Part shown: one piece after another, positions 53,307 to 56,829 of the stretch
Position numbering within the stretch: the first letter of the stretch is position 1
Layout: each line of letters opens with the position of its first letter
From: Escherichia coli
GTDB lineage: Bacteria > Pseudomonadota > Gammaproteobacteria > Enterobacterales > Enterobacteriaceae
Length of the DNA: 64,000 bases
NCBI RefSeq assembly: GCF_003334765.1
Contig: NZ_QOWT01000003.1
Direction: 5' to 3' (one strand)
Notes under the pieces: generated by a model
The model's input: the letters and a program-made list of their open reading frames with translations, nothing else
Told to the model about the DNA's origin: nothing
The model's database searches: none
Made by a program: the position numbers and the translations under genes

Positions 53307-53978
53307 ATGCAGTACCCGATTAACGAGATGTTCCAGACCCTGCAAGGTGAGGGTTACTTTACCGGCGTTCCCGCCATTTTTATTCGTTTACAGGGATGCC
53401 CGGTTGGCTGTGCCTGGTGCGACACCAAACACACCTGGGAAAAGCTTGAGGATCGGGAAGTCTCCCTTTTCAGCATTCTGGCGAAGACCAAAGAGAGTGA
53501 TAAGTGGGGGGCTGCGAGCAGTGAAGATTTGCTGGCTGTCATTGGTCGCCAGGGATACACCGCGCGGCATGTGGTGATTACGGGTGGTGAGCCTTGCATT
53601 CATGATTTGCTGCCACTGACTGATCTGCTCGAAAAGAACGGTTTTAGCTGCCAGATCGAAACCAGTGGTACTCATGAGGTACGCTGCACACCGAATACCT
53701 GGGTTACCGTATCGCCAAAGCTGAACATGCGCGGCGGCTATGAAGTGTTGTCACAGGCACTGGAGCGAGCCAACGAAATCAAGCATCCAGTGGGGCGCGT
53801 ACGCGATATTGAAGCACTGGATGAACTACTGGCAACGCTGACCGATGATAAACCGCGAGTCATTGCACTGCAGCCGATTAGCCAAAAGGATGATGCCACA
53901 CGTTTGTGCATTGAAACCTGCATTGCGCGTAATTGGCGTTTGTCGATGCAAACACATAAATATCTAAATATTGCCTGA
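53307..53978 (+). CDS. queE: 7-carboxy-7-deazaguanine synthase (radical SAM, queuosine pathway)
   Basis: 223-aa ORF with cysteine motif CxxxCxxC (RLQGCPVGCAWCDT); recognised as QueE (YgcF). Confidence 0.92.
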   Translation: MQYPINEMFQTLQGEGYFTGVPAIFIRLQGCPVGCAWCDTKHTWEKLEDREVSLFSILAKTKESDKWGAASSEDLLAVIGRQGYTARHVVITGGEPCIHDLLPLTDLLEKNGFSCQIETSGTHEVRCTPNTWVTVSPKLNMRGGYEVLSQALERANEIKHPVGRVRDIEALDELLATLTDDKPRVIALQPISQKDDATRLCIETCIARNWRLSMQTHKYLNIA

Positions 53979-54099
53979 TTAAACATTTATAAGCGTTATA
54001 AATGGGTGGAACCTGTAAAGACTTCTACTCATTTATATTGTTTGTCGCCTCTGAAAACTCCTCCATTTTACCCATCCAGGGCTAATCATTAGCATTCTC

Positions 54100-54317
54100 T
54101 ACAAATTCTGTGGCATTAATTTTTCGCTGGAGTGAAAATTATTGCGGTAAAGTTTGGTAGATTTTAGTTTGTATAGAGTTATTTTAAATATTTACCTTTT
54201 TAATCAATGGATTAAGTGCTCTTTAACATAATGGATGTGTTGTTTGTGTGATACTATAAAGTTGGTAGATTGTGACTGGCTTAAAAAATCATTAATTAAT
54301 AATAGGTTATGTTTAGA
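54100..54317 (+). promoter_or_regulatory. AT-rich CRISPR leader (promoter-containing) directly upstream of the first repeat
   Basis: AT-rich tract ending ...CTGGCTTAAAAAATCATTAATTAATAATAGGTTATGTTTAGA immediately before repeat 1; upstream boundary approximate. Confidence 0.7.
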
Positions 54318-54712
54318 GTGTTCCCCGCGCCAGCGGGGATAAACCGGCAAAAACCGGGCAATCGCAAAAAGGCGTAATGTGTTCCCCGCGCCAGCGGGGA
54401 TAAACCTGTGTTTGCGGCATTAACGCTCACCAGCATTTCGTGTTCCCCGCGCCAGCGGGGATAAACCGACGTGGTCATGGGTGCTGCTGTTGCAGAGCCA
54501 GTGTTCCCCGCGCCAGCGGGGATAAACCGAGCAGATACACGGCTTTGTATTCCGTGCGCCCGTGTTCCCCGCGCCAGCGGGGATAAACCGAATAGCAATA
54601 GTCCATAGATTTGCGAAAACAGGTGTTCCCCGCGCCAGCGGGGATAAACCGGAGCCTGACGAGACTACTGAGGCCGTTCTGTCGAGTTCCCCGCGCCAGC
54701 GGGGATAAACCA
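54318..54712 (+). CRISPR. Type I-E CRISPR array, 7 repeats and 6 spacers of 32 bp, leader-proximal end at 54318
   Basis: 29-bp repeat GTGTTCCCCGCGCCAGCGGGGATAAACCG at 54318, 54379, 54440, 54501, 54562, 54623 and 54684 with 61-bp period; repeat 2 ends CCT; terminal repeat is degenerate (GAG...ACCA). Confidence 0.96.
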
Positions 54713-55166
54713 CCATATAACCCGTTATCTCTTTCTCAAGTTTTTATATTAGCAGTACTTGTAATAAGCAACATATCCACGTAACACCTCATGTTCAAAA
54801 TAGTTCTCCATGCCAGAGAGGTTCACAATTATCGATACAAAAAATTAAATTTAATCAAAGTGTTATTTGTATGATTCTTAAATCGTTAAGAAATTTTAAT
54901 CTATTATTTTTTTAATATTGAATTAATGCCTGTTAATTTTTTCTTTAGAATAACAGTATATTTTTTAAGCTTGTTATTCATTGGTTAAGTAATAAATCTG
55001 GAAGTTTGTCTTTGTTTTGAGGCTAATGAGTGGTTTTACATAACCGCCTCTATACGCTGTTGATGAATAGTTCTTATGAATAAAGATATCCAGTTCATAC
55101 TTTAAGTGAAAATTGATAAAGTGCGATTCGTATTGTCTTTTATTCTAAAGACATCGAGTGTAGTTA

Positions 55167-55304
55167 ATATTCCTTGTAAAAACAGGGATAAACCGAACTA
55201 GTTAAAGTTTTTATTATGTTCCCTGCATCAGCGGGGATAAACCGGACTTGTTATCATTTTTTAAGTTGTCGAACTTATGTTCCCCGCGTCAGCGGGGATA
55301 ACCA
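55167..55304 (+). CRISPR. Degenerate I-E mini-array: 2 recognisable repeats, 1 clean 32-bp spacer, 1 eroded repeat
   Basis: ATGTTCCCTGCATCAGCGGGGATAAACCG (55216-55244), spacer GACTTGTTATCATTTTTTAAGTTGTCGAACTT (55245-55276), ATGTTCCCCGCGTCAGCGGGGATAACC (55277-55303); eroded repeat ending GGGATAAACCG at about 55195. Confidence 0.75.
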
Positions 55305-55350
55305 TTCAGGTATGTTCAGGCCGGGCAGTTTCCCGCCCGGCCTTCCTCAC

Positions 55351-56829
55351 TTACGCATTCGACCAGCTCTGGATCGAATCCACATTCCCCAATTCCCCAT
55401 GCATCACTTCATACGATTTTTTCAGGATCACATCAGTATGTTTGGTTAGGTCTTTGAAAATGCCTTTATTCATCGCGTCGTAGCGTTTGGCATTGCTCTC
55501 AATCGGTATAAAGATATCTTTCACGCGAACCATGTTATCGACAGCCGTTGCGTAATCCGGGTATAGCCCCAGACCTACCGCTGTATTAATCGCTGCCCCC
55601 AGGCTTGCACAACCGTTAATGGCGTTACGTCGTGCCGGAAGGTTGAACACGTCGGCAAAAATCTGCATAAACAGATCGCTGTTCGAACCGCCGCCAGTAA
55701 TGATCACATGCTTCGCAAAGTGATTCATTTCATTACACATATTGTCGTAATTGTTCTTCAGCGTCAGCGCCACGCTTTCCAGTATCGAACGATATATCCA
55801 TGCGTAATCCATGCTGGAATCAAAGCCGATCATAATCCCGCGTTTGTACGGTTCCCACGGATTGGTCAGCCAGTCCAGCACCGTCATCAGACCATTACAG
55901 CCTGGCGGCACACAAGAAGCTTTTTTGTTGAGTAAATCTTCCGGTGAAAGATCCTGCGCCCTGGCATCCTGAATTAACGACTCGCCTAGCATGTCGCGCA
56001 GCCAGCTCACCGTCCACATGCCTTTGCGAATACCGTAACCTTCATACAGCAATGTTTGCGGAATAGAAGACATAATCGGCCAGTACGCTACTGGATCTTT
56101 CGGCAGTGCTTTGCCGTTCATCATCAATGCGATGTAAGTGCCAAGAGAAATTACCGCCGTTTCATCATCCAGTAATCCGGCCCCCAGAGCTTCTACCGGT
56201 TTATCACTGGTGGTACAAACAACCGGCAGTCCTGCCGGGAAATGTGTCGCCAGTGCGGCTTGTGGTGTGATATGTCCGAGGACGGTGCCAGGCATTTGCA
56301 CATCAAACAGCATATGACGGGGGATATTAAACTTATCCATTACCGCAGCATCTTCGCTCCATGCCCAGCTCTTATAATCCACCGGCCACTGACCAAAATA
56401 GTTGGCGATATTGTCTTTAAACTCGCCGGTTAAGCGATGCGTCAGATAACCCGAAAAAGAGGTGACATATGCCACGTCAGGGTTAGTGTGTTCGTAAGGG
56501 CGTGTAACGCGTGCATCCTGCCAGCTAATCAACGGCGCAGCAGGCGTGCCATCGGCTTTCAATAACGCACGGCAGCAACGGATGGATCCCAGACCAATAC
56601 CGACAATATCTTCTTTATTCCCGGCAAACTGACTCATCAAATCGTGACCGGCAAAACATAATGATGCCCATAAATCGTCGTCAGGATGTTCTGCAGTATC
56701 GGCATCTGGCGTGTGCATCGGCTGTAATAAGCCTTTGCCTTCGCAAACCACGTTACCTTCCAGATCGTACATCACCACTTTTGTGCTCTGACTTCCGCCA
56801 TCAATCCCTATGATGTATTTTTTCGACAT
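55351..56829 (-). CDS. ygcE: FGGY-family carbohydrate kinase, substrate unknown
   Basis: 492-aa ORF recognised as YgcE; FGGY N- and C-terminal domains. Confidence 0.88.
   Translation of the reverse strand: MSKKYIIGIDGGSQSTKVVMYDLEGNVVCEGKGLLQPMHTPDADTAEHPDDDLWASLCFAGHDLMSQFAGNKEDIVGIGLGSIRCCRALLKADGTPAAPLISWQDARVTRPYEHTNPDVAYVTSFSGYLTHRLTGEFKDNIANYFGQWPVDYKSWAWSEDAAVMDKFNIPRHMLFDVQMPGTVLGHITPQAALATHFPAGLPVVCTTSDKPVEALGAGLLDDETAVISLGTYIALMMNGKALPKDPVAYWPIMSSIPQTLLYEGYGIRKGMWTVSWLRDMLGESLIQDARAQDLSPEDLLNKKASCVPPGCNGLMTVLDWLTNPWEPYKRGIMIGFDSSMDYAWIYRSILESVALTLKNNYDNMCNEMNHFAKHVIITGGGSNSDLFMQIFADVFNLPARRNAINGCASLGAAINTAVGLGLYPDYATAVDNMVRVKDIFIPIESNAKRYDAMNKGIFKDLTKHTDVILKKSYEVMHGELGNVDSIQSWSNA

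Follow-up and report, generated by a model that had tools for sequence, protein, structure and literature searches.

The CRISPR-II Locus

The window, that is, the whole 64,000-nucleotide stretch of Escherichia coli DNA analysed here, contains the CRISPR-II locus of this species in the intergenic region between queE and ygcE. Sequence comparison of this region with E. coli K-12 MG1655 gave 0 mismatches over 3300 bp, and MG1655 positions are obtained as 2958725 minus the window position. The cas-E operon of K-12 lies about 20 kb away, past the right end of the window. The features of the locus are collected in Table 1.

Table 1. Features of the CRISPR-II locus, in window coordinates.
Feature	Position	Strand	Basis
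queE (ygcF), left flanking gene of CRISPR-II	53307..53978	+	223-aa ORF; queE by annotation in MG1655, where the region is identical, and in strain W60
leader2.3, leader of the main array, 30% G+C	53979..54317	+	composition; literature (PMC3903273, PMC7665894)
Main array CRISPR2.3 (K-12 "CRISPR II"), 7 repeats and 6 spacers, 61-nt period	54318..54712	+	repeat search
AT-rich tract, 0.45 kb, splitting the CRISPR-II array	54713..55166	.	composition, strain alignment
Decayed repeat within the tract, TAGTTCTCCATGCCAGAGAGGTTCACAAT, hairpin lost	54801..54829	+	core identity, folding
R0, most degenerate repeat, ATATTCCTTGTAAAAACAGGGATAAACCG	55167..55195	+	19/29 to consensus
S0, 20-nt spacer, AACTAGTTAAAGTTTTTATT	55196..55215	+	sequence
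R1, ATGTTCCCTGCATCAGCGGGGATAAACCG	55216..55244	+	25/29 to consensus; loop AUCA
S1, canonical 32-nt spacer, GACTTGTTATCATTTTTTAAGTTGTCGAACTT	55245..55276	+	sequence
R2, terminal repeat, 28 nt, ATGTTCCCCGCGTCAGCGGGGATAACCA	55277..55304	+	24/29; one A of ATAAACC deleted
GC-rich hairpin between R2 and the ygcE stop codon	55319..55342	.	minimum-energy and centroid folds
ygcE, FGGY-family sugar kinase, right flank, convergent with the arrays	55351..56829	-	ORF and annotation

The initial annotation had reported a second, degenerate type I-E mini-array downstream of the main array, with eroded repeats, one 32-nt spacer and a single-base deletion in the last repeat. All of this is present: three repeats (R0, R1, and R2) begin after a gap of 454 nt, and R2 is short of one A. 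The mini-array (55167-55304) is CRISPR2.2 of the E. coli CRISPR-II locus and is already known under that name, which follows the nomenclature of Diez-Villasenor et al. (2010) and is used in PMC3903273, PMC4489801, and PMC3737337. CRISPR2.2 has been described with three repeats and two invariable spacers (PMC4489801). We found the same content in the same place, on the ygcE side of the ygcE-queE interval and close to the expected distance of about 0.5 kb from CRISPR2.3, likewise with no leader, and saw no difference from the published array. Possible additions to its description are the decayed repeat in the tract, its presence in the Escherichia lineage of strain E69, which is divergent at the species level, and a slower divergence than that of the neighbouring DNA. 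RefSeq restricts its CRISPR annotation to CRISPR2.3 and leaves the mini-array unmarked. The mini-array is a real, old, and ordinary remnant with three repeats, frozen at the far end of this second type I-E locus.

The last repeat of CRISPR2.3 (54684-54712) ends in ...ATAAACCA, not in ...CCG, in K-12 and in all seven other aligned E. coli strains; bordering the tract on the left, it behaves like another "terminal" repeat. At the other end of the locus, the GC-rich hairpin (GGCCGGGCAG...CGCCCGGCC) lies just past the stop codon of ygcE, and neither strand carries a U-run. In L036 (E. coli SCPM-O-B-8794, a GTDB species representative), a lineage without the array, the stem of this hairpin differs yet stays complementary (GAGCGGGCGG/CCGCCCGCTC). 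Judging from these sequences, the hairpin seems to be under selection and probably forms the 3' end of ygcE.

Repeats of the Mini-Array

Compared with the type I-E consensus GWGTTCCCCGCGYCAGCGGGGATAAACCG, R1 matches at 25 of 29 positions, R2 at 24, and R0 at 19. A search of the 64-kb window with the 25-nt repeat core, allowing up to three mismatches, returned nine sites where 0.00 were expected; these are the seven repeats of the main array together with R1 and R2, and the same search found no further I-E repeats in the window. R1 and R2 are separated by the canonical start-to-start distance of 61 nt, with a spacer of 32 nt. The distance from R0 to R1 is 49 nt and the spacer between them 20 nt, as against the canonical 61-nt period and spacers of 32-33 nt.

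Taken alone, R0 is a weak repeat: with both strands of the window counted, its score of 19/29 recurs at just one other site. It is nevertheless credible because it lies on the strand of R1, 49 nt upstream, and because of its exact 11-nt 3' block (GGGATAAACCG) and its stem-loop geometry, which is that of the other repeats. One could argue from the low score of R0, and from the unrelated site that equals it, that the mini-array owes its likeness to repeats to chance and is no CRISPR remnant. We regard this as extremely improbable: it is refuted by the excess of core matches, with R1 and R2 at 25/29 and 24/29 against an expectation of 0, and by the orthology between R2 and the repeat that terminates the arrays of other species, and it is further at odds with the canonical spacing of R1 and R2.

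The erosion of the repeats had been ascribed to C-to-T and G-to-A changes. The substitutions are indeed mostly of these kinds, but the T in the loop of R2 has to be taken off the list, as it is the E. coli consensus allele (PMC3737337). Two small ORFs, one of 77 aa from the ATG in R1 and one of 68 aa from that in R2, were dismissed, since they run antisense into ygcE and R1 is missing in E69. An Rfam scan of 53900-55500 gave nothing beyond one sub-threshold chance match.

Predicted Hairpins and Processing by Cas6e

The same degeneracy had led to the suggestion that the array may no longer be processed by Cas6e, and folding of the repeats ran against such a decay. R0, R1, and R2 are all predicted to form a 7-bp stem with a 4-nt loop, in the structure ....(((((((....)))))))... 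of the canonical repeat, and all three hairpins are found in both the minimum-energy and the centroid folds of a 201-nt transcript. The predicted energies are -7.9 kcal/mol for R0, -12.1 for R1, and -15.1 for R2, the canonical repeats having -15.1 to -15.2. The stem of R0 has U-A instead of C-G at two pairs and a G.U wobble instead of C-G at one, with the predicted fold kept. The stem of R1 carries a single change, C>U, which gives a G.U wobble. R2 has a perfect stem, the loop GUCA, and a 1-nt deletion in its 3' tail, and its handle position reads AUAACCA. R0 and R1 retain the complete 8-nt 5' handle AUAAACCG. With GUCA, the loop of R2 has the consensus sequence of the species (CGGTTTATCCCCGCTGACGCGGGGAACWC; PMC3737337), and the loops GCGA, GTTA, and ACCA were found in ordinary arrays of the other strains and species compared. 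On these predictions, the repeats, R1 and R2 among them, seem less eroded than their appearance suggests, and loss of processing is not indicated. The decayed repeat at 54801-54829 has no fold (-3.2 kcal/mol, z -0.29).

Cascade loading depends on a complete 8-nt 5' handle but tolerates any base at the start of the 3' handle (PMC4288178), and a 20-nt spacer, the length of S0, is at the lower edge of function (PMC5159557). With the handle of R1 intact and the hairpin of R2 in place, a crRNA made from S1 would be standard. Our literature search found no report of crRNA from the mini-array, and no main text of a paper giving the sequence of S1 or R0. In K-12, CRISPR-II is weakly transcribed and repressed by H-NS, and ChIP-seq in that strain assigned the off-target binding of Cascade to spacers of CRISPR-I and one spacer of CRISPR-II, none of it to the mini-array (PMC5904413). 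The orthologous CRISPR-II array of Salmonella is subject to BoxA antitermination, and the spacers that Rho termination takes away are leader-distal ones (PMC7665894).

The AT-Rich Tract

In the initial annotation, the mini-array was preceded by its own AT-rich leader-like tract (54720-55166). The composition of the tract agrees with this, its G+C content of about 28% being close to the 30% of leader2.3 and far from the 51% of the window. Beyond composition the resemblance fails. Local alignment of the tract with leader2.3 gave a score of 29; shuffled sequences averaged 23 +/- 2.9 and scored as high in 12 of 300 cases, so the similarity is not significant, and the 150 nt nearest the repeats gave 18 against 18.4, the level of chance. 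leader2.3 contains a boxA-like element, GCTCTTTAACAT, at 54218-54229 on the + strand, about 90 nt upstream of the first repeat, with one mismatch to GCTCTTTAACAA. This is the sole boxA match with at most one mismatch in the 64-kb window, and the scan found none on the + strand ahead of R0. The element of leader2.3 is conserved in E69 and E. albertii, and by analogy it fits the Nus/BoxA antitermination of the orthologous Salmonella array (PMC7665894). The tract holds three promoter-like sites where shuffles predict 4.3, hence no excess, and no terminator-like sites, so that no intrinsic terminator is predicted between CRISPR2.3 and the mini-array. Leaders have been assigned only to CRISPR2.1 and CRISPR2.3 (PMC3903273; PMC3737337).

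The tract also contains remains of repeats. The decayed repeat at 54801-54829 has an identity of 16/27 with the repeat core (P=0.001 against dinucleotide shuffles), the maximum on the minus strand being 13, and other E. coli strains have a more repeat-like form of it, AGTTCCCCATGCCAG. In E69 the tract has another decayed repeat (15/27, P=0.014), which follows the last good repeat at a distance of 61 nt. The idea that the whole tract is a run of decayed repeats with kept hairpins was rejected: hairpins of 7 bp and 4 nt occur at 54875 and 54921, that is, two against 0.9 in shuffles (P=0.23), and both, as candidate repeat remnants, are missing in E69. A score combining identity and transitions was uninformative for decayed repeats, as the minus strand and shuffled sequences score as high in AT-rich DNA. 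The remainder of the tract has no detectable relationship to repeats, and no homologue of the tract was found in phages or plasmids.

Across eight E. coli strains, the middle of the tract (about 54801-54990) is hypervariable, with 38 substituted and 4 indel columns in 190 nt and a pairwise diversity of 0.079, and the last 176 nt beside R0 have a diversity of 0.009. Megablast detected the tract middle in 3018 genomes versus 4155 for the 176 nt adjoining R0, and in about 1100 genomes with both flanks it did not find the tract middle.

An independent second array with its own leader at 54720-55166, now decaying, could claim the AT-richness of the tract and the conservation of the 176 nt next to R0 relative to the mid-tract. 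It seems to us very unlikely in view of the missing similarity to leader2.3, the lack of a boxA on the + strand, promoter-like sites at chance level, the decayed repeats inside the tract (at 54801 in K-12 and behind the last good repeat in E69), spacers that never vary, and a literature that recognises no CRISPR2.2 leader.

Distribution in E. coli and Other Escherichia

Among 5426 complete E. coli genomes, 4129 carry an entire 191-bp block around the mini-array (55140-55330), and in 3388 of these its identity is >=99%. Roughly another 400 genomes match from R2 onward only, and in about 24% of E. coli genomes the block is either missing entirely or reduced to R2. In every listed match that spans the whole mini-array, the annotation underneath it is "none". 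S1 is 100% identical in 4049 of the 4063 E. coli carriers and never lies on a plasmid, and R0, S0, and S1 have no variable site in eight diverse E. coli strains. We observed no turnover of spacers, the sole variants being deletions, which upholds the view of a static array: no spacer has been gained, and change comes only through deletions between repeats.

One such change is the form R0-S0-R2 in an O145 strain. In strains VTB96933v and ATCC 25922 there is one array only, R2 is its last repeat as well, and the tract is absent together with R0, S0, R1, and S1. Single arrays of this kind, named CRISPR2.2-3 (e.g., in the B2 strains LF82 and ATCC 25922), share with the locus studied here its position, leader2.3, and the terminal repeat CGCGTCAGCGGGGATAACCA beside ygcE, and differ in the absence of the tract and of these four units. 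Strain C10 has T>A at the wobble position of R1.

Other species and lineages of Escherichia were gathered via ygcE. E. albertii and E. whittamii have single arrays that end in the ...CGCGTCAGCGGGGATAACCA repeat, without the tract. The tract is likewise absent from Escherichia sp. MOD1-EC7003, whose single array has a terminal repeat reduced to the remnant GGGGATAACCA. In E. whittamii, leader2.3 is truncated by an internal deletion and is followed by a single degenerate terminal repeat, the array being down to one unit. L036 lacks both the CRISPR-II array and its leader, and the stretch from queE to the ygcE hairpin is filled by about 150 bp of unrelated sequence. The strain E69, deposited as "E. 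coli", has a ygcE gene with 92.2% nucleotide identity to that of K-12, which makes it as distant as E. whittamii (92.3%). It has a diverged tract, then R0 (29/29) directly followed by S1 (30/32) and R2, R1 and S0 being missing. No E69-like genomes were found among the RefSeq complete E. coli genomes.

Since the same repeat ends the single arrays of other strains and species, R2 is the ancient degenerate terminal repeat that ends the CRISPR-II array across the genus. The occurrence of the block in E69 and of R2 across species indicates, from these sequence comparisons, that the stranded block is older than the E. coli radiation and has varied by recombination between repeats rather than by acquisition. 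Aligned in the same register, S0 and the first 20 nt of S1 agree at 12 of 20 positions (P=0.02), and R1 resembles a fusion in which the 5' part comes from R2 and the 3' part from R0. Given these two likenesses, the E. coli form may derive from an E69-like R0-S1-R2 arrangement by unequal crossing-over; the reverse order, with a deletion in E69, is equally possible.

Spacer Targets

The 32-nt spacer had been described as phage- or plasmid-like in appearance. Our searches for its targets gave this no backing, as no credible protospacer was found in INPHARED, PLSDB, IMG/VR, the JGI metagenomes, or E. coli genomes. The best match of S1 among the INPHARED phages had E=0.3, and full-length 100% matches among the PLSDB plasmids were only to "plasmids" of 4.8-4.9 Mb, which are mislabelled chromosomes. 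The IMG/VR scan, with a pattern ignoring every sixth position, returned a single match, an E. coli chromosomal fragment carrying the array itself. The metagenome scan, with a pattern demanding a non-C at PAM position -3 to exclude the array, also returned a single match, which is the array with a SNP. E. coli genomes contain no second S1 site outside the locus. The "viral" entry IMGVR_UViG_2531839665_000019 and three PLSDB "plasmids" are E. coli chromosome including the CRISPR locus, and give false protospacer matches.

A Probable Stranded Trailer End

With a probability of about 0.8, we interpret CRISPR2.2 as a fossil of the type I-E array's leader-distal (trailer) end, one that has no leader and acquires no spacers. 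R0-S0-R1-S1 are old units, cut off by 0.45 kb of AT-rich DNA with at least one further decayed repeat in it, and the block is fixed and nearly invariant in about three quarters of E. coli genomes, varying by deletion between repeats only. As there is no leader, boxA, or convincing promoter of its own, transcription would come only from read-through of the weak, H-NS-repressed, BoxA-carrying CRISPR2.3 transcript. Such a transcript could be cut into a standard 61-nt S1 crRNA and a short 49-nt S0 crRNA, because the three Cas6e hairpins are predicted to be intact and both R0 and R1 keep their AUAAACCG handle. These crRNAs would at present serve no immune function, as no target could be identified for them.

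This arrangement recalls the "fossil" spacers at the trailer end of arrays generally, in which the oldest leader-distal units are common to all strains, the last repeat is mutated, and loss occurs by recombination between repeats. It differs from them in that 0.45 kb of non-repeat DNA separates the old units from the active part, and in that the most decayed copy, R0, is still predicted to fold. As in orphan or leaderless arrays such as those of the cas-less E. coli BL21, repeats and spacers persist without acquisition; unlike BL21, K-12 has the cognate cas-E operon, so that processing is possible in principle.

Possible Selective Constraint

The divergence between K-12 and E69 counts against a mere relic. 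R0, S1, and R2 together are identical at 86 of 90 positions (95.6%), more than the third codon positions of ygcE (79.7%), the conserved part of the tract (80%), or its remainder (63-68%), leader2.3 being at 93.5%; the binomial probability of 86/90 is about 2e-5 against an identity of 0.797 and 1.5e-3 against 0.85. A pure relic should drift like its surroundings, so this slow divergence suggests constraint, as seen with a single outgroup lineage. Also against a relic, the hairpin of R0 survives two double changes from C-G to U-A, whereas the decayed repeat at 54801 has lost its hairpin. We set these paired substitutions of R0 aside as evidence of selection, since by hand count the compensatory pattern has a chance probability of about 0.14-0.3.

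The mini-array might accordingly be imagined as kept by purifying selection, either as the source of a conserved non-immune crRNA (from S1 and perhaps S0, e.g., for Cascade-guided regulation) or as a structural DNA or RNA hairpin element at the end of ygcE. Besides the slow divergence, the invariance of S1 in more than 4000 genomes and the predicted integrity of the hairpins and handles speak for this. One of the two S1 differences in E69 falls at position 24, a spacer position that in Cascade is flipped out of the guide-target duplex. We nevertheless consider selection unlikely. The block is dispensable, about a quarter of E. coli genomes (24%) doing with R2 or nothing at all, and S1 is unchanged in the cas-less BL21 (PMC3737337). 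No target turned up in any of the collections searched, and the K-12 ChIP-seq data assign no off-target Cascade binding to the mini-array (PMC5904413). The absence of variable sites in 81 nt within E. coli is not significant, about two being expected, and the signal from one outgroup lineage could be mimicked by a short gene-conversion tract.

Significance

The mini-array is a long-catalogued CRISPR remnant of a textbook strain, not a discovery, and in its present standing matters little. Because RefSeq/PGAP leaves it unmarked, automated scans will keep rediscovering it. Mis-binned fragments of the E. coli chromosome put it into "viral" and "plasmid" collections, where it may cause false protospacer matches. 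Its invariant spacer offers a stable marker of the split CRISPR-II configuration. If the constraint suggested by the comparison with E69 is true, it would bear on the role of the E. coli type I-E system, which shows little immunity-driven turnover.
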